Shown: positions 14,282 to 63,438, counted from the first letter of the stretch. The stretch is 64,000 bases of DNA from Candidatus Tayloriibacteriota bacterium (GCA_943350765.1 CALRAJ010000003.1:65456-129455); one strand, 5' to 3'. Numbers and translations: made by a program. Notes: generated by a model not told the origin, from the letters alone.

Positions 14282-15187
14282 GTGATGAGTGAACTTGTTA
14301 TGAAAATCACAATCTTGGTGAAGTGTGTCCAACTCGACCCCCGCCCTCAAGGCGCGGGAGGCAACGAGGAGTTTTTCCGCGGTAACCGCGTTCTCGGCAT
14401 CGAAGTCACGATTCCGAGCCTTGCGGCCCGCTGTATCGCTAACCTCGACCACCATGGCGAACATGACACAGCGGAAACGCCAAGTGCCTGTGAGCAAGCT
14501 CTCACCAAGAGCCTCGGCAATACTGGCGTAATCATGGCGACGGTTCGGCCTGATGCTGACTCGGTGACCGCCATGGCGGTTTTGGCACGGCAGCTCGAAG
14601 GCCTGTCAGTGGATGAAGACCTCATCCGCGCGGTCGGAGCCTTCGACCGGCTGGGGCCAGCTGCCGGGCGTCCGGAAGATCGCGTCATTGCGATCGCTCG
14701 GAAGGCGATGGACTTCAAGATCCTCCTGTGTGATCGGGTGATCTGGGTGGCTGACCTTATCGGGGGTGAGGACAAGTCGGCCGAGGTCGCGACTTTGGTG
14801 GCGTCTCACGATGCCGACATCGCCGCGGCTCGGCAGGCATCGCAAATCAGCACCCGCTCTTCCAAAGGGGTGATGATCGCATCGGTCACCTCTACTCACC
14901 GCAACGCCACCCTGCTCGGCTACGAGGCTGGACAGGTGGTGGTGGCGTTTAACCCCACCATGGCGGTGGACCCGAAGTCGCCCTCTGCCGGTACCTACGA
15001 GAAGTTCACGGTCTGCAGGTACGACTCCCATGTCAGGTGCGATTTGCCCTCAGCTCTCAAAGAACTTCAAGCTCTCGAAGTTGGGTGGGGTGGTCGCGGC
15101 GACATCTTCGGGTCCCCTCAGGGTGTCAGTTCGACCTTAGTGACGGCACAGGTGTTGGAAGTGGTTGCTCGCCACTGCTACGAATAA
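14282..15187 (+). CDS. hypothetical protein, markedly GC-rich (cassette ORF F)
   Basis: 301 aa, Ala/Arg/Gly-rich. Several antisense ORFs overlap it, as expected for high GC. Composition differs from the host genes. Confidence 0.4.
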   Translation: MMSELVMKITILVKCVQLDPRPQGAGGNEEFFRGNRVLGIEVTIPSLAARCIANLDHHGEHDTAETPSACEQALTKSLGNTGVIMATVRPDADSVTAMAVLARQLEGLSVDEDLIRAVGAFDRLGPAAGRPEDRVIAIARKAMDFKILLCDRVIWVADLIGGEDKSAEVATLVASHDADIAAARQASQISTRSSKGVMIASVTSTHRNATLLGYEAGQVVVAFNPTMAVDPKSPSAGTYEKFTVCRYDSHVRCDLPSALKELQALEVGWGGRGDIFGSPQGVSSTLVTAQVLEVVARHCYE

Positions 15188-15249
15188 GTTTTGACGGCGT
15201 TTGAGCAACGCCATCACATACCGCAATATGTGATTTCGAATCAACATGT

Positions 15250-15318
15250 AAATCAACAAGTGGACGATGCGGCGTTCACTTTCTTATCAAGTCCATCAAC
15301 GATGGTGGGCTTGTTGGA
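15250..15318 (+). repeat. direct repeat of the 5' end of ORF E
   Basis: caacaagtggacgatgcggcgttcactttcttatcaagtccatcaacgatggtgggcttgttggaaag is near-identical to 13585-13655. It encodes MDDAAFTFLSSPSTMVGLLERRGYQ and then a stop. Confidence 0.6.
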
Positions 15319-15406
15319 AAGAAGGGGATATCAATGATCCCGAAGTGGTTATTGAGAGGGCTAGACGGCAGATGGCCGAGAATTATGAAGGATTAGATTG
15401 AAAATT

Positions 15407-15570
15407 ATGGGAAAAGGTACGAAGTCCTTCAAGGTGTCAGGCGGTTCGGGAGGAAAGCGTGGTCACTCTAACATGTGCCATTGGACAGTTACTGCTGAAA
15501 TCAAGGCAGTTTCCAAGAGGGCGCGTCGTCTGGAAACCAAGCGTCTCATCGCTACTGAACGCCAAGACTA
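15407..15570 (+). CDS. possible small basic protein (54 aa)
   Basis: MGKGTKSFKVSGGSGGKRGHSNMCHWTVTAEIKAVSKRARRLETKRLIATERQD. Below the ORF-track size cutoff and speculative. Confidence 0.2.
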
Positions 15571-15817
15571 GAAGGCAATAACACCTTGCAAAAGGTTGCC
15601 ACAAAATCCGGTGGTGTAAATCAAGGTAAACAGTTTTGTCCCCGTTTTTTCTGAAAAAAATGGATGAGCCTAGAGGAAGCAGAGCCTCAAATGTTTTGTT
15701 CTTAAGGGGATCAATTTTTGCTAGCAAGAATTGATAAAGGATCTATCCCATAGCGTGATGAGAAATCATCGGCGTAAGGGGTGGCACAGATCCATGCTCA
15801 AAGAAAGGACCTAATCT

Positions 15818-15886
15818 TGAGCACTTTATTGAGTCCGTGCAGTGAAATACATTCGCGGATTCATAGAGTTCTTTACAAATTATGTT
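15818..15886 (+). promoter_or_regulatory. conserved leader hairpin motif, copy 3
   Basis: cttgagcactttattgagtccgtg cagtgaaatacatt cgcggattca tagagttctttacaaattatg. The stem is kept by compensatory and wobble changes relative to copies 1 and 2. Confidence 0.55.
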
Positions 15887-16219
15887 ATGAGTATGAAAAC
15901 CAACTCAGTTATCGGGGCTGTCATTTTGGTAGTCGTAATCTTCCTAACCACTGGTTGTGAGGAGGCTGACAAGAGTCAGTTCAACCTCACATCGTTTCCG
16001 ACTAACCACTGGAAAGTGGTCGGTCAGGGAACGAATGGGCAAGTCGTCGTCGAGACGACATCCACTAACCTGTTGCAGTACTTTCGGGTACACCTAGCGA
16101 CAGCTGTGGTTCCCTTGACTAACGGGCAATCGGCCCGACTCGAGGTAACCACAAGGTGGAATCCCAGGAAAGGGGTGCGGGAGATTATCTCCTCCATGGC
16201 TTATCCAGCGATGGAGTGA
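15887..16219 (+). CDS. hypothetical lipoprotein (cassette ORF G)
   Basis: MSMKTNSVIGAVILVVVIFLTTGCEE is a signal peptide plus lipobox Cys. First in-frame ATG after the leader motif. Confidence 0.4.
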   Translation: MSMKTNSVIGAVILVVVIFLTTGCEEADKSQFNLTSFPTNHWKVVGQGTNGQVVVETTSTNLLQYFRVHLATAVVPLTNGQSARLEVTTRWNPRKGVREIISSMAYPAME

Positions 16220-16277
16220 TGAAGTAAGGTTGAAATTGAACCTCTAAAATTCTCCTCTCCTGCAGAGTGCGCAGGGA

Positions 16278-16384
16278 ACATGTGATGGTACAGCATTATA
16301 AATGTATCCGTAATGTGATTTGGCTAATACCAAATCCGACTCTGGGGAAGCTCCGGGGCGCTTGACGAGCGGAAACTGTTGGGG
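16278..16384 (+). repeat. composite intergenic repeat, blocks X plus Y, copy 2, continuous with HHR5
   Basis: acatgtgatggtacagcattataaatgtatccgtaat, then a 30-nt insert, then ctctggggaagctccggggcgcttgacgagcggaaactgttgggg. Confidence 0.55.
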
Positions 16385-16398
16385 ATCATAAGATCCTC

Positions 16399-16453
16399 CC
16401 CTGTCTCGGAATGTGTTATTCCGACTGATGATGGCTCAAAAGAGCCGAAACAG
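16399..16453 (+). ncRNA. hammerhead ribozyme motif HHR5 (minimal)
   Basis: cuGUC | ucggaauguguuauuccga | CUGAUGA | ug gcuc aaaa gagc c | GAAAC | ag. Cleavage after C16405. The stem II changes a-u to g-c relative to HHR4 and so are compensatory. Confidence 0.6.
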
Positions 16454-16499
16454 AATGCTGGTGTGCTTGTTGGAAAAATTACGGTATTCGTATTTCCCT

Positions 16500-16835
16500 A
16501 TGAAGACATTTCAAGACGAAGTCTGTGGCGATCTGGTGGCCTCGGTGATATCTGGCTACACATCCCTGAATCATTCGGATGTTAAGGCGTGGATTATGAA
16601 GTGGGGGTTGATGCCCGTTGAATTCCCTCAAGACCTCTGTCTTTCGTTGATTGAGATAGACGAGGATCATGAGACTGATGGCGGCTTGGTTATAAACCTC
16701 GGAAAGATTGATGGTACCAGGAAATGGTATGCAAACAAACCCAAAGATGTCATCGAAAAAGTTCGACGGGATATTGCCGACGCACTACGGGATCTAGGAG
16801 CTGTTACCAAAGAATCTTCTCGGGCGACGGACTGA
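16500..16835 (+). CDS. hypothetical protein (cassette ORF H)
   Basis: Track ORF 16413 overlaps HHR5, so start is moved to ATG 16500 (MKTFQDE...). Confidence 0.35.
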   Translation: MKTFQDEVCGDLVASVISGYTSLNHSDVKAWIMKWGLMPVEFPQDLCLSLIEIDEDHETDGGLVINLGKIDGTRKWYANKPKDVIEKVRRDIADALRDLGAVTKESSRATD

Positions 16836-16938: not shown

Positions 16939-19900
16939 ATGACAGATGAAACTAAAAATAAGCTGATACAGCCTTTAATTCCAGTACAGAAAAGCTTGGT
17001 TGCTCAAAAAGAGGAGGAAATTCTCGCTTTTTGGCAGAAAAATAATATTTTCAAAAAGACTATCGAAAAGCCTGCACCAAAAGGTGATTTTGTGTTTTAT
17101 GATGGACCACCTTTTGCTACGGGTCTGCCACATTTTGGGCATCTTTTGCCAACCTCGATCAAAGACGCTATTCCTCGTTATAAAACCATGCAGGGCTTTC
17201 GGGTAGCTCGTCGCTGGGGCTGGGACTGTCACGGTTTACCTATAGAAAATCTGGTGGAAAAAGAGCTTGGACTGAAAACCAAGCAGGACATTGAAAGCTT
17301 CGGTGTAGGAAATTTTAATAAGGCCGCACGGGATACTGTATTGCGATACGCCTCGCAATGGAAAGAAATCATTCCCCGCATCGGGCGTTTTGTGGATATG
17401 GAGGACGATTATCGTACTATGGATGCTTCCTATACCGAGTCCGTCTGGTGGGTATTTAAAACACTTCATGAAAAGGGCCTCGTACATCAGGGCTTCAAGT
17501 CCATGCAACTCTGTCCGAGATGTGAGACCACACTATCAAACTTCGAAGTCAATCTAGGGTATAAAGACATTACTGATATTTCAGTATTTGTAACCTTTCC
17601 ACTTCTAGAGGATCCTAGTATTTCACTTATTGCATGGACCACAACACCATGGACTTTGCCCGGTAATGTAGCTCTCGCGGTGGGGGCGGATATTGTGTAT
17701 GTACAGATTGCGCTTGAAGGTAAAAAGTATATTGTAGCAAAGGAGCGAGTGGGGCAGGTGGCAAAGGATAAGGCGTATACGATCGAGAAGGAATTTAATG
17801 GCACTGATTTGGTAGGTAAAAAATATGTACCGATTTTTGATTATTATATAAATGATACGGCACTCGCAAATAGAGAAAATGGCTGGAAAATAGTAGTAGG
17901 AGATTTTGTGACTACGACTGATGGCTCAGGTATTGTGCATATTGCTCCAGCTTTCGGGGAAGACGATTATGAGCTCTCAAAGCGAGAAAAATTGCCTTTT
18001 GTGCAACATGTTACAACAGGTGGATTATTTAAAAAAGAGGTTACGGATTTTGCTGGACAGTCAGTAAAGCCAAAAGAAGACCCTACTCAGACCAAGTCTG
18101 ACGGGCAAGTCCATCAGAAGGCTGATATCGAAATTATCAAACATCTCGCTCACGCGGGACGACTTTTTGGTAAAGAAAAAATTATTCACTCGTACCCGCA
18201 CTGTTGGCGTTGTGAGACCCCACTTTTAAATTACGCTTCTTCGTCGTGGTTTGTAAATGTACCAAAGATCAAAGACCGACTGGTAGCAGAAAATAAAAAG
18301 ATTGGCTGGACGCCAGAGTTTGTGGGAGAGGGAAGGTTTGGCAACTGGCTGTCTGGAGCGAGGGAGTGGGCGATTTCTCGCTCGAGATACTGGGGTGCAC
18401 CACTGCCAGTCTGGAAATGTAGTGAATGTGACAAAAAAGAATTCATAGGCTCAGTAGAAGAGCTCAAAAAGCATCTCAAGCCGAGAAACACCTATTATGT
18501 GATGAGACATGGTCAGTATCCGGGGAACGCAGAAGGTTTCTTGTGTTCAGGGCTCGACTGCGCAGGATTGACAGATGTTGGTCGTGGTGAAGCGATTAAA
18601 GCTACTAAAACTCTTTCTGACACAAAGATTGATTTGATCATAACCTCACCTCTTGCGAGAACAAAGGAGACCGCATATATCGTTGCAGAAAATTTGGGTA
18701 TTACAAAAGAAAAGATTGTTGAGGATGAGCGACTTCAGGAAATAAAGTTTGGTATTTTTAACGGTAAGCCTGCTGGGGAATACCATAAACAATTTGAAGG
18801 TGGAGGTGATGGCTGGTTCACAAAAGGTCCTGTGGATGCAGAAAGTCATTTGCAAGTAAAACACCGAATGGGGGATGCTCTTTATGACCTAGAACAGAAA
18901 TATCAAGGTAAAAAGATTTTGATTGTGACACACGATACTCCAGCGTGGCTTTTGATAGCCGCTTCTTTGGGGCTTAATCAAAAAGATACTATCGATCTTC
19001 ATCCTGGTGGGGATTTTATGAAAAATGCTGAAGTCAAAGAAATGCCTTTTGTAACAATTCCACATAATGCTGACTACGAGCTCGACCTCCACCGGCCGTA
19101 TATCGACGAGGTGACTTTTACCTGCTCATGTGGAGGAATAATGAAGCGAGTGCCAGAGGTTTTTGATTGTTGGTTTGAGTCTGGCGCAATGCCTTATGGT
19201 CAAAATAAGTATCAAGGTACAGCACTTTCTGGATTTGATCCAAAAAGTGCTATGGGTTTCCCTGCTGACTTTATTGCAGAAGGACTAGATCAAACTCGTG
19301 GCTGGTTTTACTCGATGCTCGTCCTAGGTGTAGCTTTGTTTGATAAAACTCCTTATAAAAATGTTATCGTAAACGGAGTGATTTTGGCAGAGGACGGACG
19401 AAAGATGTCAAAATCACTTAAAAATTATCCAGACCTGATGCTCACGGTAGATAAATACGGTGCAGACGCTTTGAGGTACTATTTGCTCGCATCACCATCG
19501 GTGCGAGCCGAAGACGCTTGTTTTTTTGAAAAAGGTGTAGATGAAGTAGTAAAAAAGCACATCGGTCGTCTGAACAATGTCTACACATTCTATGCTCTAT
19601 ATTCCCAAGGCGAAAACGCACTATCTGCGAGTGCGGACTCTAAAAACATTCTCGATATATGGATACTTGCGAGACTAGCCGAGCTGGTAGAGACGGTAGA
19701 AGCCTCGATGGAAAAATACGAGCTAGACCGAGCATCTCGACCGATTGCCGATTTTATAGACGATCTTTCCACTTGGTATATTCGTCGTTCAAGAGACCGT
19801 TTCAAATCAGAAGATATTGCGGATAAAAAATCTGCACTACAAACTACGAGGTTTGTGCTGGAACATTTATCAAAAGTGATCGCACCTTTTATGCCGTTTT

Positions 19901-20499
19901 TGGCAGAAGATATATATCAAAAAGTGAAAGGTTCAAACGGGTTTGAAAGTGTCCATTTGGCAGAGTGGCCTCAGGTGGATTTTGTAGATAAAGCACAACA
20001 GCTAAAAGTAATCACCAGCATGCAAGAAGTTCGAAAGATCGTAACACTAGGTCTTGAAGCTAGGATGCGAACAAAAATAAATGTGAGGCAGCCACTTTCG
20101 GTACTAAAAATAAAGCTACCCGTATCAATATCTATTGCTGAAAAAGAAATGATTGCTTTGATAGCTGATGAGGTAAATGTTAAGCGGATTGTATCAGATG
20201 AAACAATAAATACTGAAGTGGAACTGGATACCCTGATCACCCTAGAGCTAAAAGCCGAAGGGCAGGTCAGAGAGCTTATTCGAGCTATTCAGGATTTACG
20301 AAAGAAACAAGGTCTGACCGTTACGGATAGACCTGTGCTTTCTGTGGCGACAAGTGATATTGGTAAAAAACTCTTGACCGATTTTAAAAAAGAAATCAGT
20401 AGAGCGACTCAGCTAAGAGAACTTTTGATTTTAGATACTGGGGTGGGGGAAAGGGTGGTTTTGGACGAAGTTATTTTCGAGCTTGTTCTCGTTATGTAG
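16939..20499 (+). CDS. ileS: isoleucyl-tRNA synthetase with an inserted histidine-phosphatase (PGAM-like) domain
   Basis: HIGH-type motif PHFGHLL, WTTTPWTLPGN in the editing domain, KMSKS, and anticodon-binding C-terminus. At 1186 aa it is over-long because of a domain at about 18487-19010 (YYVMRHGQ...IVTHDT). Confidence 0.9.
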   Translation: MTDETKNKLIQPLIPVQKSLVAQKEEEILAFWQKNNIFKKTIEKPAPKGDFVFYDGPPFATGLPHFGHLLPTSIKDAIPRYKTMQGFRVARRWGWDCHGLPIENLVEKELGLKTKQDIESFGVGNFNKAARDTVLRYASQWKEIIPRIGRFVDMEDDYRTMDASYTESVWWVFKTLHEKGLVHQGFKSMQLCPRCETTLSNFEVNLGYKDITDISVFVTFPLLEDPSISLIAWTTTPWTLPGNVALAVGADIVYVQIALEGKKYIVAKERVGQVAKDKAYTIEKEFNGTDLVGKKYVPIFDYYINDTALANRENGWKIVVGDFVTTTDGSGIVHIAPAFGEDDYELSKREKLPFVQHVTTGGLFKKEVTDFAGQSVKPKEDPTQTKSDGQVHQKADIEIIKHLAHAGRLFGKEKIIHSYPHCWRCETPLLNYASSSWFVNVPKIKDRLVAENKKIGWTPEFVGEGRFGNWLSGAREWAISRSRYWGAPLPVWKCSECDKKEFIGSVEELKKHLKPRNTYYVMRHGQYPGNAEGFLCSGLDCAGLTDVGRGEAIKATKTLSDTKIDLIITSPLARTKETAYIVAENLGITKEKIVEDERLQEIKFGIFNGKPAGEYHKQFEGGGDGWFTKGPVDAESHLQVKHRMGDALYDLEQKYQGKKILIVTHDTPAWLLIAASLGLNQKDTIDLHPGGDFMKNAEVKEMPFVTIPHNADYELDLHRPYIDEVTFTCSCGGIMKRVPEVFDCWFESGAMPYGQNKYQGTALSGFDPKSAMGFPADFIAEGLDQTRGWFYSMLVLGVALFDKTPYKNVIVNGVILAEDGRKMSKSLKNYPDLMLTVDKYGADALRYYLLASPSVRAEDACFFEKGVDEVVKKHIGRLNNVYTFYALYSQGENALSASADSKNILDIWILARLAELVETVEASMEKYELDRASRPIADFIDDLSTWYIRRSRDRFKSEDIADKKSALQTTRFVLEHLSKVIAPFMPFLAEDIYQKVKGSNGFESVHLAEWPQVDFVDKAQQLKVITSMQEVRKIVTLGLEARMRTKINVRQPLSVLKIKLPVSISIAEKEMIALIADEVNVKRIVSDETINTEVELDTLITLELKAEGQVRELIRAIQDLRKKQGLTVTDRPVLSVATSDIGKKLLTDFKKEISRATQLRELLILDTGVGERVVLDEVIFELVLVM

Positions 20500-20535: not shown

Positions 20536-20565
20536 TTGACATAAGGTATGGTTGTATGCTATGTT
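20536..20565 (+). promoter_or_regulatory. candidate sigma70-like promoter
   Basis: TTGACA, an 18-nt spacer, then TATGTT; upstream of 20620. Confidence 0.25.
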
Positions 20566-20619
20566 TTGTCTTGGGAATTTGGTAGCAATTTAGCGTGCGG
20601 ACAAAACGAAAGGAAAATT

Positions 20620-21030
20620 ATGAGCAAGTCAGTTTTGGAGGTTTTGACGCCTGTTTTGGCGTCCAGTAATTTCGATGATTTATTTGAGCAAGTAGCGGAA
20701 GTGCAGGTTCCTGAAGTTGGGATCGTGGCACTTTTCCGTTCGAGGATAGACGCGTTTGCTGACCTCATTGGTTATCAAATTGTTGATTTTCTCCACGTTC
20801 TATTTTCAGAATATACCTTGGTGTCAGGACAGGATTCTCTGAGTAGGGTTTGTTATCTGATTCCAGAGCATTTCTCGGAGATGCCACTGTTGCCACTCGG
20901 AGATATGGAAAAAGGAGCATCTTTTCATCAGGGTAGCTTCAAGTTTGTTTACTATGGTGGACACCTCATTTCTTCTACTGTGGATGATATTGCCAATGGC
21001 TCTTTCCTGGTGGCGGTGCTTTTGAAATAA
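20620..21030 (+). CDS. hypothetical protein
   Basis: ATG preceded by aaaggaaaatt (RBS-like). No recognisable motif. Confidence 0.35.
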   Translation: MSKSVLEVLTPVLASSNFDDLFEQVAEVQVPEVGIVALFRSRIDAFADLIGYQIVDFLHVLFSEYTLVSGQDSLSRVCYLIPEHFSEMPLLPLGDMEKGASFHQGSFKFVYYGGHLISSTVDDIANGSFLVAVLLK

Positions 21031-21048
21031 GATTTGACTTTTACCAAT

Positions 21049-21082
21049 GCTGACACAGGATTTTCTCCTGAGTCAGCTTTTT
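21049..21082 (+). terminator. rho-independent terminator
   Basis: gctgacacagga ttttc tcctgagtcagc followed by ttttt. Confidence 0.55.
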
Positions 21083-21226
21083 AATTTACACAAAGATACA
21101 AAATACGACTGTGACGGTCGATCGTTTGTGATCGATCGTCCACAGATGTCTATCCCTAATCGATAGACCAACTGTAGACGGCATTTCGTAATTTGGGGTA
21201 TTTATCACCTTAGCATATCCCATATC

Positions 21227-21263
21227 TAAACGGCTAAACACTAGTGTTTAGCCGTTTAGCCTT
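21227..21263. repeat. palindromic REP-like element taaacggctaaacactagtgtttagccgtttag
   Basis: Same family as 1369-1397 and 34873-34908. Confidence 0.5.
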
Positions 21264-21385
21264 TGGTTTATATATGGCTCGGCTGTAGGCTACATTGGTG
21301 TTTTTGGGTAGATTTAGCTCAAAAGTGCTTTCTGTCTAAAACCTGTGTTAAAATAGGGTTAAATACTAGAGTACTAGACCCCAAA

Positions 21386-21979
21386 ATGTCTCATCATATC
21401 TACAATACCGAAGGTTTTGTTTTATCAAGTAATGCATCTCAAGAGGCCAGTAAGGTGTTGTGTGTTTTTACCAAAGAGCTCGGGGTGGTAAATGCTATTG
21501 CTCAGGGTGTGAGATTACTAAAATCTAAACTTCGCTATTCCTTGCAGGACTTTTCGTATACCAATATCTCTTTGATCAGAGGTAAAGAGATCTGGAGAGT
21601 TACCAGTGCCTCGCCAGTCGCTACGCGTTTCCCTTTAATACAAAGCCACTCAGAATACTACATAGTTTATATTAAAATCCTCAGTCTACTAAAGCGACTT
21701 TTAAACGGTGAAGAAAAGAACGAATCTCTGTTTATATCTGTCACCGAAGCTTTTGATTTCTTGGAAAATACCACACTGAGCAGTTCAGAGCTACTTTCTT
21801 TTGAATGTATTTTGGTTTTAAAAATACTGCATAACCTCGGCTATGGGGCAAAAAACCAAGTTCTGGATAAGTACGCATCACCCCTGACTTGGGACAAGGA
21901 TAAGTTGGGGGATTTTGATCAGTATCGTGTTCAGGCACTGACCACAATCAACACAGCTTTGAGAGAGAGTCAGTTGTAA
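21386..21979 (+). CDS. recO: DNA repair protein RecO
   Basis: N-terminal YNTEGFVLSSNASQEASKVLCVFTKELGVVNAIAQG matches the RecO OB-fold region. Start taken at MSHHIY. Confidence 0.6.
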   Translation: MSHHIYNTEGFVLSSNASQEASKVLCVFTKELGVVNAIAQGVRLLKSKLRYSLQDFSYTNISLIRGKEIWRVTSASPVATRFPLIQSHSEYYIVYIKILSLLKRLLNGEEKNESLFISVTEAFDFLENTTLSSSELLSFECILVLKILHNLGYGAKNQVLDKYASPLTWDKDKLGDFDQYRVQALTTINTALRESQL

Positions 21980-23972: not shown

Positions 23973-24023
23973 TCTGAGAAGCTAATTTATTTAAATAGTA
24001 TGAAAAGAAAAGAAGAAGATGTA

Positions 24024-25394
24024 ATGGAAAAGATAATTTCTCTCTGTAAAAGACGCGGTTTTATATTTCAGGGCTCAGAGATTTACGGTGGATTGGCTGG
24101 TACTTGGGACTACGGTCCATACGGTGTAGCACTACGCAATACCATCAAGCATCTTTGGTGGAAGCGTTTTGTAGATGATAGAAATGATATTTTTGGCGTA
24201 GATGCTGCGATTTTGATGAATCAAAATGTGTGGAAAGCCAGTGGTCATGTGGGAGGTTTTTCTGACCCATTGGTGGAGGATTTAAAGACAAAAAAGAGAT
24301 TCCGTGCAGACCATCTCCTCGAAGAACAGGGTATTGACCCAAAAGGTATGACTCTCGCTCAGATGGACGCGCTTATCAAAGAAAAGAAGCTCAAGAGCCC
24401 AGACGGTAACGCGCTCGGCGAAGTACGCCAGTTCAACATGATGTTTAAGACGCATGTCGGCGCTATCCAAGACGACACTTCTATTTCATATCTCCGACCG
24501 GAGACTGCACAGGGGATGTTTGTGAATTTTAAAAATATTATAGATACTTTTCATCCAAAATTACCATTTGGTCTCGCACAGATAGGGAAGGCATTTCGTA
24601 ATGAGATCGCCCCACGGGATTTTATTTTTCGTCTTCGTGAAATGGAACAAATGGAGGTTGAGTACTTTGTCGATCCTCGTGATGAGAAGTCTATAATGGC
24701 AGAGTTTGATAAGCTTTTTGATGAACAGATGAATTTTCTTGCAGATCTAGGGTTAACGAAGTCAAAAATCCACAAGGTGGAAATTGCCCCAGCCGATCGC
24801 GCGCATTACTCAAAGCGAAGTGTCGATACTGAGTTTGATTTCCCTTTTGGACAGAAAGAGCTCGGAGGACTTGCATACCGCACCGATTACGATTTAAAAG
24901 CACATACCGAAAAGAGTGGTGTTGACCTTTCGTACTTCGATGAAGAGACCAAGACCCGTTTTATTCCACATTGTATCGAGCCAACCTTCGGTGTCGATCG
25001 TCTCACACTCGCGATACTTGCTGACGCATATAGAGAGGATGAGCTTGGCGGAGAGAAGCGTGAGTATTTGAAGTTGTCTCCAAAGGTAGCACCAATACTC
25101 GTGGCTGTATTTCCACTTTTGAAAAATAAGCCGATTTTGGTGGAAAAAGCCAAAGAGGTGTACTCTGAACTAAAGAAGGTTTTTGGTGCCAGAGTAACTT
25201 TTGATGATAATGGCAATATCGGCAAAAGGTACCGTAGACAAGATGAGATAGGTACCCCATACTGTGTTACTGTCGATTTTGATACTGTAGAAAAGGAGGC
25301 TGGAGTGACTGTGCGAAATAGGGATACGGGTGAACAGGAGAGGATGCCGATAAGTGACCTGGCGAGTTATTTGCTGGGCAAAATAAGCTCATAA
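24024..25394 (+). CDS. glyQS: glycyl-tRNA synthetase (dimeric alpha2 type)
   Basis: N-terminus MEKIISLCKRRGFIFQGSEIYGGLAGTWDYGPYG; class II motifs; length about 457 aa. Confidence 0.85.
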   Translation: MEKIISLCKRRGFIFQGSEIYGGLAGTWDYGPYGVALRNTIKHLWWKRFVDDRNDIFGVDAAILMNQNVWKASGHVGGFSDPLVEDLKTKKRFRADHLLEEQGIDPKGMTLAQMDALIKEKKLKSPDGNALGEVRQFNMMFKTHVGAIQDDTSISYLRPETAQGMFVNFKNIIDTFHPKLPFGLAQIGKAFRNEIAPRDFIFRLREMEQMEVEYFVDPRDEKSIMAEFDKLFDEQMNFLADLGLTKSKIHKVEIAPADRAHYSKRSVDTEFDFPFGQKELGGLAYRTDYDLKAHTEKSGVDLSYFDEETKTRFIPHCIEPTFGVDRLTLAILADAYREDELGGEKREYLKLSPKVAPILVAVFPLLKNKPILVEKAKEVYSELKKVFGARVTFDDNGNIGKRYRRQDEIGTPYCVTVDFDTVEKEAGVTVRNRDTGEQERMPISDLASYLLGKISS

Positions 25395-27989: not shown

Positions 27990-28112
27990 CCATAAAATTC
28001 TTTCTCGGCATATCTTTTAAAAGGCACGAATATTTTCTTGGTAGAAAATTTCTCAGTCTCGGCTACCCGCCTTGCGAAGTCCTTTTAAAAGATACGCCTT
28101 CAACGAATTTTA
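27990..28112 (+). repeat. MITE-like structured repeat, family F1 copy B
   Basis: Terminal inverted repeats ccataaaattc...gaattttatgg flank the conserved core. Sits in the metG leader. Confidence 0.6.
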
Positions 28113-28137
28113 TGGCATGGCGAAAGATTTGCTTTAT

Positions 28138-29574
28138 ATGAAAAAACAAAATACATTTTACATTACGACCCCGATTTTTTACCCTAATGCTGAGTTGCAT
28201 ATGGGCAATGTGTACCCAGTGATACTCTGTGATATTTTAGCTCGATATCATAGGCTTATTGGCGATACCACATACTTTTTGACTGGTTCAGATGAACATT
28301 CGACCAAGGTAGTAAAAATGGCTGAAAAAGCTGGTAAAACTACAGAAGACTTTTTAAAGGTTACTGTTGGAGGTTTTAAAACTCTTTTTGCTTCGCTTGA
28401 TATTTCCCATGATCAGTTTATTCGTACTTCGGATCGTGAGATACATTGGCCTGGAGCTATTTTGATGTGGAATAAGCTAGTGGAGGCGGGGGACATTTAT
28501 AAGAAAAGCTACAAAGGTCTGTACTGTATTGGTTGTGAAGCTTTTGTGACCGAAAAGGATTTGGTGGGTGGTAAATGTCAGTACCATGACACTGTACCAG
28601 AGCTTCTTGAGGAGGAAAACTACTTCTTTAGACTTTCAAAGTATACCGAAAAGGTAAAGGAAAAGATTGTCTCGGGCGAGCTCAATGTTATGCCAGATTC
28701 TCGCAAGGCGGAAATCCTCGCACTACTAGATCGTGGGCTAGAGGATGTCAGCTTTTCCCGTCCAGCAAGCAAGAATCCATGGGCGATACCAGTACCAAAC
28801 GATCCCACTCAGACTATGTATGTCTGGTGTGATGCACTTGTAAACTATATCTCGGCTATTGGCTACGGACGGGACGATAAAATGTTCGAGATTTACTGGC
28901 CGGTAGATTTTCATGTTATCGGCAAGGATATTTTGCGTTTCCATACGGCTTTTTGGCCAGCGATGCTTATGTCTGCGGGTCTTCCTTTACCAAAAAATAT
29001 CCTCGTGCACGGTATGATTCTCTCTGGCGGACGAAAAATGTCAAAAACTCTTGGTAATGTGATAGATCCACAAGTGCACATCGCAGAATATGGCAAGGAC
29101 GCTTTTCGATATTTTATCGCTCGACACCTTTCTACATTTGAGGACAGTGAAATAACCCCTGAGTCGTACAAAGATGCCTACAATGCCAACCTCGCCAACG
29201 GCATTGGAAACCTCGTCTCTCGAGTAATGAAAATGGTGGTCTCATACGATATATCGTACGAAATAGTAATGGGGGAGAATAAGCTGATTAAAGAATATTC
29301 AGCACATCTCGACCGTTTTGAAATAAATAAAGCGATTGATATTGTCTTTGCAAAAGTTGGTGAGCTAGATGCATTTATCCAGACCAGTCAGCCGTTTAAG
29401 ACTATCAAAACTGATTCTAAAAAGGCCCATGCGGATATCGCGTATCTCGCACAGGAGCTGTATGTGGTAGGAGAGGCTCTTGCACCATTTATGCCAGAAA
29501 CTTCAGCGACGATCATGTCACTCGTGGCTTCAAAGAAGTCCCCAGAGAAACCTTTGTTTGAGAGGAGGATGTAA
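28138..29574 (+). CDS. metG: methionyl-tRNA synthetase
   Basis: TPIFYPNAELHMGNVY (HIGH-type) and KMSKTLGN. Start taken at MKKQNTFYITTPIFY, after the repeat. Confidence 0.85.
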   Translation: MKKQNTFYITTPIFYPNAELHMGNVYPVILCDILARYHRLIGDTTYFLTGSDEHSTKVVKMAEKAGKTTEDFLKVTVGGFKTLFASLDISHDQFIRTSDREIHWPGAILMWNKLVEAGDIYKKSYKGLYCIGCEAFVTEKDLVGGKCQYHDTVPELLEEENYFFRLSKYTEKVKEKIVSGELNVMPDSRKAEILALLDRGLEDVSFSRPASKNPWAIPVPNDPTQTMYVWCDALVNYISAIGYGRDDKMFEIYWPVDFHVIGKDILRFHTAFWPAMLMSAGLPLPKNILVHGMILSGGRKMSKTLGNVIDPQVHIAEYGKDAFRYFIARHLSTFEDSEITPESYKDAYNANLANGIGNLVSRVMKMVVSYDISYEIVMGENKLIKEYSAHLDRFEINKAIDIVFAKVGELDAFIQTSQPFKTIKTDSKKAHADIAYLAQELYVVGEALAPFMPETSATIMSLVASKKSPEKPLFERRM

Positions 29575-62610: not shown

Positions 62611-63438
62611 AGACATGACCGTTGTAGTTACGCAAATAAATCTTGCCATATGCTGGAAACTCTGGCTTCACCTTCAATTTGGAGATGAAGAAAAAAGTGT
62701 TTATTACTACTCGCTTTGTCGAAAAGCAGTGACAATGTAATAACGCAGACAATCAGCAGGAAAGACTTCTTCTGTAATCAAAAATAAAATGGATTGGCTA
62801 CGCCAAATCAAACCGGATATGGGAAACTATATCGCAGGGTTCACGGATGGTGAAGGAAGTTTCAACATTTCAGTGAAAAAGAGAATTGATTACAAAGATC
62901 ATTGGAAGTTGACAGCCTCATTTAATATCTCTCAAAAAGACCGTGTTATCCTTGCTCTCATAAAAAAGGAGCTTGGGTGCGGGACTCTGCGAGAGAGAAA
63001 AGACGGAGTTGTTTACTACGAAGTGACTAACATCACTTCATTGAAAGAAAGAATTATTCCGTTTTTTAAACGGTTTGGTTTTCTTTCAGCACGGAAAAAA
63101 ACAAATTTCTCCATCTTTTCGACAATTGTCGAAAAGATGGAGAAAGGAGAACATCTGACAGATGAAGGTTTTCTGAAAATTCTAGAATTGAGAGAAACTC
63201 TCAATGAAGGAAGGGGAAGAAAACGTAAGTATAATTTATCAGATTGTATATCAAAAGAAGAATCCTCAGAGACTATACGCAAGACGGTTTCAAATCAATT
63301 GGAAGTCGACGATTTGAGAACGATGATATAGTCCGACCTTTGTGGCGACACAAAGATTAACAAAAAAGCAGAATCTTTGATAAACAGAGACTAGTTAAAT
63401 AAGTCGAAATAGTATGAGTGCATTGCTACTACATTATG
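62611..63438 (+). mobile_element. group I intron in 23S rRNA (domain IV, near E. coli positions 1915-1917)
   Basis: Exon junction ccgtaactat|...|aacggtcctaaggtagcgaaattcc reconstitutes the conserved AACUAUAACGGUCC. The exon ends in U, the intron ends in G, and the intron carries a LAGLIDADG ORF. Confidence 0.75.
62789..63331 (+). CDS. LAGLIDADG homing endonuclease (single-motif type)
   Basis: IAGFTDGEGSFNISV motif; 180 aa; sits inside the intron. Confidence 0.8.
   Translation: MDWLRQIKPDMGNYIAGFTDGEGSFNISVKKRIDYKDHWKLTASFNISQKDRVILALIKKELGCGTLRERKDGVVYYEVTNITSLKERIIPFFKRFGFLSARKKTNFSIFSTIVEKMEKGEHLTDEGFLKILELRETLNEGRGRKRKYNLSDCISKEESSETIRKTVSNQLEVDDLRTMI

Follow-up and report, generated by a model that had tools for sequence, protein, structure and literature searches.

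Why should an isoleucyl-tRNA synthetase (IleRS) carry a phosphatase inside its catalytic domain, and does that phosphatase have any part in the work of the synthetase? The question is raised by a 64,000-nucleotide (nt) stretch of DNA, called the window below, from Candidatus Tayloriibacteriota bacterium (GCA_943350765.1, CALRAJ010000003.1:65456-129455). Its ileS gene (16939..20499, + strand), an open reading frame (ORF) of 1186 amino acids (aa), encodes a complete type-2 IleRS in which a histidine-phosphatase domain is nested at residues 516-714 (18484..19080, + strand). A first-pass annotation had placed a histidine phosphatase of the phosphoglycerate mutase (PGAM) superfamily behind CP1, the editing domain, within the Rossmann-fold catalytic domain, and profile searches with hidden Markov models (HMMs), structure prediction and comparative data bear this out. 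The motifs that it quoted are all present: RYWGAPLPVW (residues 485-492), RHG (523-525), SPLARTKETA, IVTH (with H665), DLHRPYIDE (716-724) and DCWFESG (743-749).

The Pfam family His_Phos_1 (PF00300) matches residues 520-687 with an expectation value (E) of 1.1e-31 and a score of 110.4 bits against a cutoff of 21.7. The interval first proposed for the domain, 18487-19010, corresponds to residues 517-690 and spans the Pfam match; the last two helices and a strand extend the whole alpha/beta fold to about residue 714. That the segment might be just a divergent native IleRS insertion is ruled out by the Pfam match, by the structure and by a clean alignment gap against orthologues that lack the insert. 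Modelled alone with AlphaFold, the domain reaches a predicted local distance difference test (pLDDT) of 92.4 and a predicted template modelling score (pTM) of 0.90, and it is thus predicted with confidence to fold independently of the synthetase. Foldseek aligns this model with solved branch-1 small metabolite phosphatases at template modelling (TM) scores of 0.76-0.80 and root-mean-square deviations (rmsd) of 2.4-3.1 A. The nearest solved folds are the riboflavin-pathway phosphatase HFP (9mmh), the GpgP Rv2419c (4pz9/4qih), PspA (4ij5/4ij6), PhoE (1h2e/1ebb), Rv3214 and CobC, and a profile search of PDB sequences returned the same list, with PspA, PhoE and CobC as its best matches.

The residues of the active site barely vary, as judged from an alignment of 300 related domain copies (from 118 genome loci and 170 database proteins). 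The RHG motif (R523-H524-G525; 18505..18513, + strand) directly follows the strand formed by residues 518-523, and its arginine and histidine are found in 268/268 copies that cover the position. R574, in SPLARTKETA (18658..18660, + strand), is arginine in 288/288 such copies; E601, in RLQEIKFG (18739..18741, + strand), is glutamate in 277 and aspartate in 11 of 289; and H665, in IVTHDT (18931..18933, + strand), is histidine in 294/295, with a tyrosine in the remaining one. From what is known of the superfamily, we take H524 to be the phospho-accepting nucleophile, R523, R574 and H665 (the second arginine and the second histidine among them) to line the phosphate pocket, and E601 to be the proton donor. 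Near-invariance over some 300 copies is the signature of a working enzyme and not of a relic; together with an E of 1e-31 and TM scores of 0.76-0.80 to solved histidine phosphatases, the conserved catalytic residues mean that the His_Phos match is not due to chance. The profile score, the RHG motif, the second arginine and histidine with the acid, and the alpha/beta fold all place the domain in branch 1 of PF00300, and the insert is apparently a complete and active histidine phosphatase of the PhoE/PspA/GpgP/CobC-like kind. The single copy in which tyrosine replaces the second catalytic histidine (P0006, reading IVTYEG) may be an inactive variant. An unusual cysteine-containing loop after the RHG motif (GNAEGFLCSGLDCAGL; window 18520-18590, residues ~528-551) is common to the window protein and its closest relatives, P0172-P0176; more distant inserts lack it.

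The first-pass description of a PGAM-type domain with all its hallmarks was correct as to the hallmark residues, but the domain belongs to the phosphatase branch rather than the mutase branch. Models for dPGM (cofactor-dependent phosphoglycerate mutase) score too low: TIGR01258 gives 29 bits against a cutoff of 81.7, dPGM_arch gives 77 against 225, and all PRK dPGM models stay far under their cutoffs. The dPGMs have ERHYG around the catalytic acid, where the window domain has RLQEIKFG. CobC alpha-ribazole phosphatase (TIGR03162, 76 bits against 162.9) and PspA phosphoserine phosphatase (NF045917, 55 bits against 350) were rejected on the same grounds. The best NCBIfam model for the insert is that of the Rv2228c-type RNase H / acid phosphatase (NF005567, 90 bits), which is also a His_Phos domain fused to a nucleic-acid enzyme; its cutoff of 326 is far above, however, the fusion is end to end, and the partner is RNase H and not a synthetase. 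Since the window domain falls under every curated equivalog cutoff, no substrate can be transferred to it from these families. The solved small branch-1 phosphatases (PhoE 1h2e/1ebb, PspA 4ij5, GpgP 4pz9/4qih, CobC 6nru and HFP 9mmh) share its fold, the RHG...R...E...H set, a size of ~200 aa and a PhoE-like cap region, but they are only 20-28% identical to it and are free-standing, whereas the domain discussed here is nested in ileS or encoded directly upstream of it. An aminoacyl-adenylate is a mixed anhydride and not a phosphomonoester, and in view of the known chemistry of the family the earlier suggestion that the domain might act on it is chemically unlikely for a phosphomonoesterase.

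The host enzyme carries everything that is expected of a type-2 IleRS. It scores 882 bits against the NCBIfam model TIGR00392 (ileS; cutoff 621), and Pfam divides the 1186-aa ORF into tRNA-synt_1 (split in two), His_Phos_1, Anticodon_1 and DUF5915. Motif scans locate the HIGH signature of the class I active site (HFGH, residues 65-68; 17131..17142), the CP1 editing-domain motif WTTTPWT (residues 233-239; 17635..17655), a second CP1 motif, GSGIVH, at residue 329, and the KMSKS signature (residues 822-826; 19402..19416); these are followed by the anticodon-binding domain (residues 906-1055) and a DUF5915 C-terminal domain typical of type-2 IleRS (residues 1068-1177), at 19654..20469, all on the + strand. 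From these motifs the CP1 editing domain appears intact. The full-length AlphaFold model (48 homologues) has a pLDDT of 90.7 and a pTM of 0.84, with the insert mostly in blocks of pLDDT 88-96 and one loop lower (blocks at 81 and 69), and Foldseek aligns it with IleRS2 of Priestia megaterium (8c8v, TMt 0.84), with the Thermus thermophilus enzyme (1ile, TMt 0.93) and also with yeast IleRS. Profile score, signature motifs, C-terminal domains and structural match thus agree on type-2 IleRS. The models for the mupirocin-resistance synthetases do not fit (MupB 762 and MupA 719, that is, 718-762 bits against 1900), and neither does ileS_w_GNAT (NCBIfam NF040702), against which the window IleRS scores 321 bits where the cutoff is 1999.

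This is probably the organism's ordinary IleRS. A scan of the 64 kb window found no second IleRS and no other His_Phos domain in it. Downstream of ileS on the + strand (20548..21979) lie a small ORF without a family match (20548-21030) and recO (21263-21979; Pfam RecO_N/RecO_C). recO is found downstream in 72/75 related insert-bearing loci and argS upstream in 40/54, and the same gene order, with the small ORF and recO downstream, surrounds ileS genes that lack the insert. These conserved downstream neighbours, recO included, put the window gene at the orthologous ileS locus. Genomes of the candidate phyla radiation (CPR) are small, and positional orthology and the 64 kb window suggest that the nested enzyme is the ordinary type-2 IleRS of its bearer and may be its sole one.

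The place of the insertion is sharply defined. It lies beyond CP1 in the latter half of the catalytic Rossmann-fold domain, in a surface hairpin where 199 residues separate the two halves of one zinc knuckle: the pair C494-S-E-C497, directly after WGAPLPVW (18418..18429, + strand), and the pair C729-S-C731 (19123..19131, + strand). The type-2 enzymes 8c8v and 1ile have the same scaffold and motifs, DUF5915 and a CxxC...CxC zinc knuckle in the same place, but with a linker of ~20-40 residues instead of an enzyme domain. In orthologues without the insert the linker at the knuckle is ~20-30 residues; after the CxxC it reads roughly ...GS(I/V)xEL(E/K)K... and then runs directly into DLH(R/K). The excess over these orthologues (919-1011 aa) comes to ~200 aa and not the ~250 aa first estimated. 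The linker is variable at this point, and the zinc cysteines are not universally kept. At the C-terminal junction (PHNADYELDLHRP, residues 708-720; 19060..19098, + strand) a PHNxxYE tail precedes the DLHRP of the IleRS core. This tail is specific to insert-bearing enzymes, and in an unbiased set its logo gives P 98, H 97, N 94, Y 87 and E 95 per cent. The GC content of the insert equals that of the rest of the gene; a recent horizontal insertion was therefore rejected, there being no GC anomaly across the insert.

A nested phosphatase may seem unusual, and so it had been called, but this is true only by comparison with textbook enzymes; among the closest relatives in the Patescibacteria it is the majority state. 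When the window IleRS with its insert deleted was used as the query, 113 of the 120 closest 90%-identity clusters were found to carry PF00300 (one of the 113, P0171, being the window protein itself) and seven did not. The insert is by no means rare. Searched against 1.84 billion proteins, a profile of the insert alone retrieved representatives of 282 clusters at E<=1e-30. In GTDB species-representative genomes, a DNA pattern for PHNxxYELDxHRP, for which ~0.07 chance matches are expected by our own calculation, matched in at least 119 species genomes; 118 of the matches fall in IleRS-type ORFs, which measure 1110-1270 aa when complete. These ORFs have 219-232 residues between WGxPxPxW and PHN, and nearly every one whose sequence reaches far enough upstream contains an RH(G/A) motif. 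All insert-bearing loci with an informative taxon label belong to Patescibacteria (Nomura-, Adler-, Zambryski-, Taylor- and Lloydbacteria, Paceibacteria and others). Because this survey was seeded on one junction motif it undercounts variants, and the nested design is widespread in the phylum.

The design extends to a lineage in which UGA is recoded. On a 311 kb contig (locus L121, 3480-6932) argS, ileS and other genes are called in many short pieces under the standard code; read with UGA as a sense codon (code 25), ileS becomes a single ORF of 1150 aa with 12 in-frame UGA codons, RHG, KMSKS and the nested phosphatase, so the insert occurs in this lineage too. The apparent free-standing protein P0008, considered as a possible phosphatase with an IleRS remnant, was rejected as a gene-calling fragment of such a UGA-recoded IleRS, and P0033 is likewise free-standing only in appearance, being a fragment of a recoded gene. 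Insert-bearing enzymes (for example, P0192, P0213, P0254, P0256, P0271 and P0288) are named "class I tRNA ligase family protein" by NCBI, so that automated metabolic reconstructions may miss the IleRS of these genomes; of the seven insert-less relatives, P0219 and P0223 are named "isoleucine--tRNA ligase" and the other five have no NCBI name.

Where did the domain come from? The insert profile also matched stand-alone proteins of 187-205 aa with E values of about 1e-39 to 1e-45. In all four of the first loci with usable flanks, an insert-less ileS follows directly on the stand-alone gene, although in one of them the contig is cut off and the downstream gene is only probably ileS. The gene order at these loci is argS-(x)-phosphatase-ileS-small ORF-recO. 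With the stand-alone proteins alone as seeds, a scan of metagenomes gave 80 loci, 10 with the domain nested in IleRS and 70 with it free-standing. ileS follows just downstream of the free-standing phosphatase in 56/67 loci with downstream sequence, at a median gap of 3.5 bp from phosphatase stop to ileS start (mostly -10 to +11); it is complete in 36 of the 56, and all 36 are insert-less and 919-1011 aa long. Upstream, argS lies within 700 bp of the phosphatase in 42/45. The argS-phosphatase-ileS arrangement is kept over deep divergence (39-62% identity), and none of the 119 insert-bearing loci examined has a separate phosphatase gene. Nested and adjacent states thus exclude each other at the locus, as expected of alternative forms of one association (a Rosetta-stone relationship). 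A separate gene in sister lineages, its lack at insert-bearing loci and a later clean deletion (below) all indicate that an operon partner moved into ileS, and the insert most probably derives from the gene between argS and ileS. In one locus (P0111, L127) a stand-alone relative sits next to recO with no ileS between them, an occasional rearrangement of the cluster.

Nor is the domain confined to one copy, one site or one synthetase. Two tandem copies occupy the usual IleRS site in P0045, P0063 and P0163, and in P0054 (L130, 1932-6191), P0097, P0101 and P0110 the usual site holds one copy and a second follows KMSKS at a distance of ~80 residues, ahead of the anticodon-binding domain. In IleRS with two domains the first copies are shorter, matching profile positions 1 to ~150. 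P0022 (L131, 366-3947) is a valyl-tRNA synthetase (ValRS) by NCBIfam and has at least four His_Phos copies at two sites, one close behind the CP1 editing domain and at least three beyond WWGHRIPVW. Its ORF stops at an in-frame TAA with phosphatase-like sequence beyond, possibly through an error in a low-coverage contig, a pseudogene or recoding. A search seeded with P0022 found at least 30 further ValRS clusters (P0291-P0320, mostly fragments) with a His_Phos domain ~90-110 residues before KMSKS, from Gracilibacteria, Doudnabacteria, Parcubacteria and others. In neighbour-joining trees of the domain, which have no support values and are too noisy to count insertion events, the ValRS inserts tentatively fall with the extra IleRS copies and outside the main group of IleRS inserts and stand-alone proteins.

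The domain has also been lost. The seven insert-less IleRS among the closest clusters (P0188, P0198, P0205, P0211, P0219, P0222 and P0223) fall together in a single clade, surrounded by insert-bearing sequences, when a neighbour-joining tree (without support values) is built with the insert masked; their distance to particular insert-bearing enzymes is 0.36-0.41, compared with 0.66-0.80 to enzymes of the adjacent type. In place of the domain they have a replacement linker (KSGTKPKNKKGE) that reads ...EKKSGTKPKNKKGELDLHRP in the clade and PHNKSGSLDLHRP in P0205. The linker bears what looks like a scar: counted from the Asp of DLHRP, position -8 is P, -7 is H or K and -6 is N (KSG...P[KH]NKxGELDLHRP), and in the insert tail PHNxxYELDLHRP these positions are P, H and N. 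This P/N scar is lacking in adjacent-type and canonical enzymes, and no phosphatase gene lies between argS and ileS in the two loci of the clade examined (L133 and L134). In L134, argS and ileS are separated by a 405-bp GC-rich gap. The simplest reading of these sequences is that the domain was cleanly deleted and a scar stayed behind, from which it follows that aminoacylation does not need the domain.

The insert also changes at a pace of its own. Measured against the window protein over 137 insert-bearing IleRS, the insert has a median identity of 42%, compared with 68.5% for the catalytic core, 63% for CP1 and 52% for the C-terminal part. The same holds at short range: in five close relatives (P0172-P0176) the core is ~90% identical and the insert 47-73%, with nearly identical flanks. 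The surface of the domain thus seems free to change, or driven to change, around an active site that stays fixed.

What, then, does the phosphatase do? We lean, with no great assurance, towards a function tied to class Ia synthetases, because the nesting recurs in ValRS and at a second IleRS site and because copies are multiplied; the last point, the ValRS nesting and the persistence of the gene arrangement over deep divergence likewise favour a link to translation. The domain would act as an independent, tethered phosphomonoesterase outside the aminoacylation mechanism: H524 would attack the phosphate of a substrate to form a phospho-histidine intermediate, which water would then hydrolyse with E601 as acid/base, and fusion would secure co-expression at a ratio of 1:1 and co-localisation with IleRS. 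The domain is an accessory, with aminoacylation chemistry independent of it, and is tolerated at several loops around the catalytic domain. A small nucleotide-type phosphomonoester, such as adenosine monophosphate (AMP) or a related adenosine phosphate, is a weakly supported candidate for the substrate. Several observations weigh against a tie to the synthetases. The insert is acidic (median isoelectric point, pI, 5.7), so nothing about it points to RNA binding; the enzymes nearest to it serve ordinary metabolism (phosphoserine, 3-phosphoglycerate-type, ribazole and riboflavin-pathway phosphatases), which fits an unrelated housekeeping role equally well; it evolves much faster than the synthetase core; a whole subclade does without it, so that a coupling to IleRS, if there is one, can be dispensed with; and in compact CPR genomes the adjacency of two genes may be no more than a relic of their history.

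Many of these observations are what a neutral fusion would lead one to expect, in which a housekeeping metabolic phosphatase moved from beside ileS into a permissive loop by local rearrangement and was kept because the cell needs the phosphatase. We hold this possible, if doubtful. Its closest solved relatives are metabolite phosphatases (9mmh, Rv2419c GpgP, PspA, PhoE, CobC), the insert changes faster than the IleRS core, as expected of a passenger whose surface is unconstrained, one clade lost the domain with no visible change in IleRS, and the point of insertion is a variable linker whose zinc cysteines are not universal. The CAAD domain of cyanobacterial aminoacyl-tRNA synthetases shows, too, that class I synthetases tolerate nested passengers (PMC4893482). 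Accidents of adjacency, however, hardly explain nesting in at least 30 ValRS clusters, second sites in both IleRS and ValRS, or two to four or more copies, and they sit poorly with an argS-phosphatase-ileS order held at a median gap of 3.5 bp across such deep divergence. A further reading is a new kind of quality control or repair embedded in the synthetase. The phosphatase would free the 3' end of the tRNA, or the catalytic loop of the synthetase itself, of an inactivating phosphate or pyrophosphate, or it would clear away a by-product or inhibitor that is a phosphorylated nucleotide. This is compatible with a domain that looks active, is locked to ileS, recurs in ValRS, varies in copy number, evolves fast and is occasionally lost, yet we think it unlikely. 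If it were true, the class Ia synthetases of Patescibacteria would have, besides CP1, a second "proofreading" enzyme that was first an operon partner and was then built in.

A narrower and still less probable version would have the domain repair the damage done by an attacker, by removing an inactivating phosphate or pyrophosphate from the tRNA 3'-CCA end or from a serine of the synthetase, with the tether placing the enzyme where the blocked substrate arrives. To our knowledge, neither IleRS nor ValRS is a target of toxSAS- or HipA-type toxins. Attacks of this kind on tRNA ends and class I synthetases are documented all the same: toxSAS toxins pyrophosphorylate tRNA 3'-CCA ends, and HipA/HipT kinases phosphorylate GltX and TrpS (10.1101/2021.04.30.441581, PMC11559606, PMC6581861). 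A fast-changing surface around invariant catalytic residues, expansion in copies, several sites and sporadic loss also have the look of a conflict. The acidity of the domain speaks against it, as do its PhoE-like size, its alignment with PhoE across the cap region and nearest folds that are all small-molecule enzymes. PADLOC defence models gave no match to the insert and one weak, unrelated match to one of two stand-alone relatives, and no kinase or toxSAS gene was found among ~28 scanned window ORFs (all but three of those over 150 aa). That the domain is instead a sensor, binding a phosphorylated metabolite or alarmone and signalling through the zinc-knuckle hairpin to tune aminoacylation, with turnover incidental, seems very improbable. 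It is inserted inside the catalytic domain and not appended to it, and the high-confidence linkers and model (pTM 0.84) are compatible with a fixed orientation; but variable sites, variable copy number and a free-standing form that exists as a separate protein argue against precise allosteric geometry, the conserved E601 and both histidines indicate catalysis, and one subclade dispenses with the domain. Least credible of all is an intein-like element or a dead passenger without enzymatic function. The first-pass annotation had entertained a selfish insertion, and a His-Asn (PHN) at the C-terminal junction does superficially resemble an intein C-terminus, as fast evolution might also befit such an element. 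Yet no Hint/intein or endonuclease family turns up in the Pfam search, and a single His_Phos fold accounts for the entire insert; the N-terminal junction is N/T/Y and not Cys/Ser, and HN is usually followed by A/K/E and not C/S/T. Catalytic residues that are invariant over hundreds of copies, a GC content equal to that of the gene and derivation from an operon partner likewise disfavour the idea.

The closest parallel to this history is CAAD, a domain homologous to stand-alone Curt1 proteins that has been nested repeatedly, at different points, in cyanobacterial class I synthetases (PMC4893482). Its hosts are ValRS, IleRS, LeuRS, GluRS, ArgRS, MetRS and CysRS (PMC4893482 and papers cited there), and for GluRS fusion of a neighbouring gene has been proposed (PMC4893482). 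The phosphatase behaves in the same way, in that it has stand-alone homologues and is nested repeatedly, at more than one site, in class I synthetases (here IleRS and ValRS) of one phylum, with the synthetase apparently still functional. The likeness is one of working and not of homology, there being no sequence relation between CAAD and the window insert. The present case differs further in its passenger, a soluble enzyme whose active site is intact; in its site, which lies within the catalytic domain and parts the two halves of the zinc knuckle; in a copy number that sometimes reaches two to four or more; and in its phylum, the Patescibacteria. Among curated families, ileS_w_GNAT is also an IleRS with an extra enzyme domain, although there the extra domain is a GNAT and the window IleRS is no member. 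The nested phosphatase is thus the theme of an accessory domain in an aminoacyl-tRNA synthetase with a different passenger, place and phylum. No paper on a histidine phosphatase nested in IleRS or ValRS was found in the searchable literature; the architecture as such is already recorded, as the sequences are abundant in public databases with precomputed Pfam labels.

Several other features of the window were noted in passing. Directly upstream of ileS, 14282-16835 has a GC content of 0.45-0.53, compared with ~0.41 in ileS, and holds three ORFs without a Pfam match in the place that argS takes in 40/54 related loci; the region is possibly an insertion or of foreign origin. The small ORF between ileS and recO (20548-21030, + strand) encodes 160 aa, and an unannotated ORF of 154-178 aa stands there in three of five inspected loci (L122, L124 and L125), with none in L133. 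The order ileS-recO-DUF11 protein-class II aminoacyl-tRNA synthetase-M16 peptidase is conserved in L133 and L134. Two further synthetases of the window, a class II enzyme with an HGTP anticodon domain (24000-25394) and MetRS (28072-29574), have no extra domain. The 23S rRNA gene at 60345-64000 matches model positions 1-2504 over 3656 nt and so contains more than 1 kb of extra sequence, within which an ORF (62789-63331, + strand) encodes a LAGLIDADG endonuclease (Pfam E=1.6e-19). rRNA introns of this type are common in CPR bacteria, and the extra sequence with its ORF is one of them.

Aminoacyl-tRNA synthetases are among the most conserved enzymes known, and a second enzyme, itself intact, that sits within the catalytic domain of IleRS, and of ValRS too, in a large bacterial radiation marks a clear departure. 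It also offers an unusually full natural history of a nested fusion, from stand-alone gene to nested domain, through duplication and spread to a paralogous synthetase, to clean deletion with a scar. Should the domain prove to be only a passenger, it would still be useful in showing how neighbouring genes can be captured by permissive loops of essential enzymes. Should the phosphatase serve translation, it would be a new accessory activity of the class I synthetases and would bear on how ultra-small, host-dependent bacteria sustain translation.

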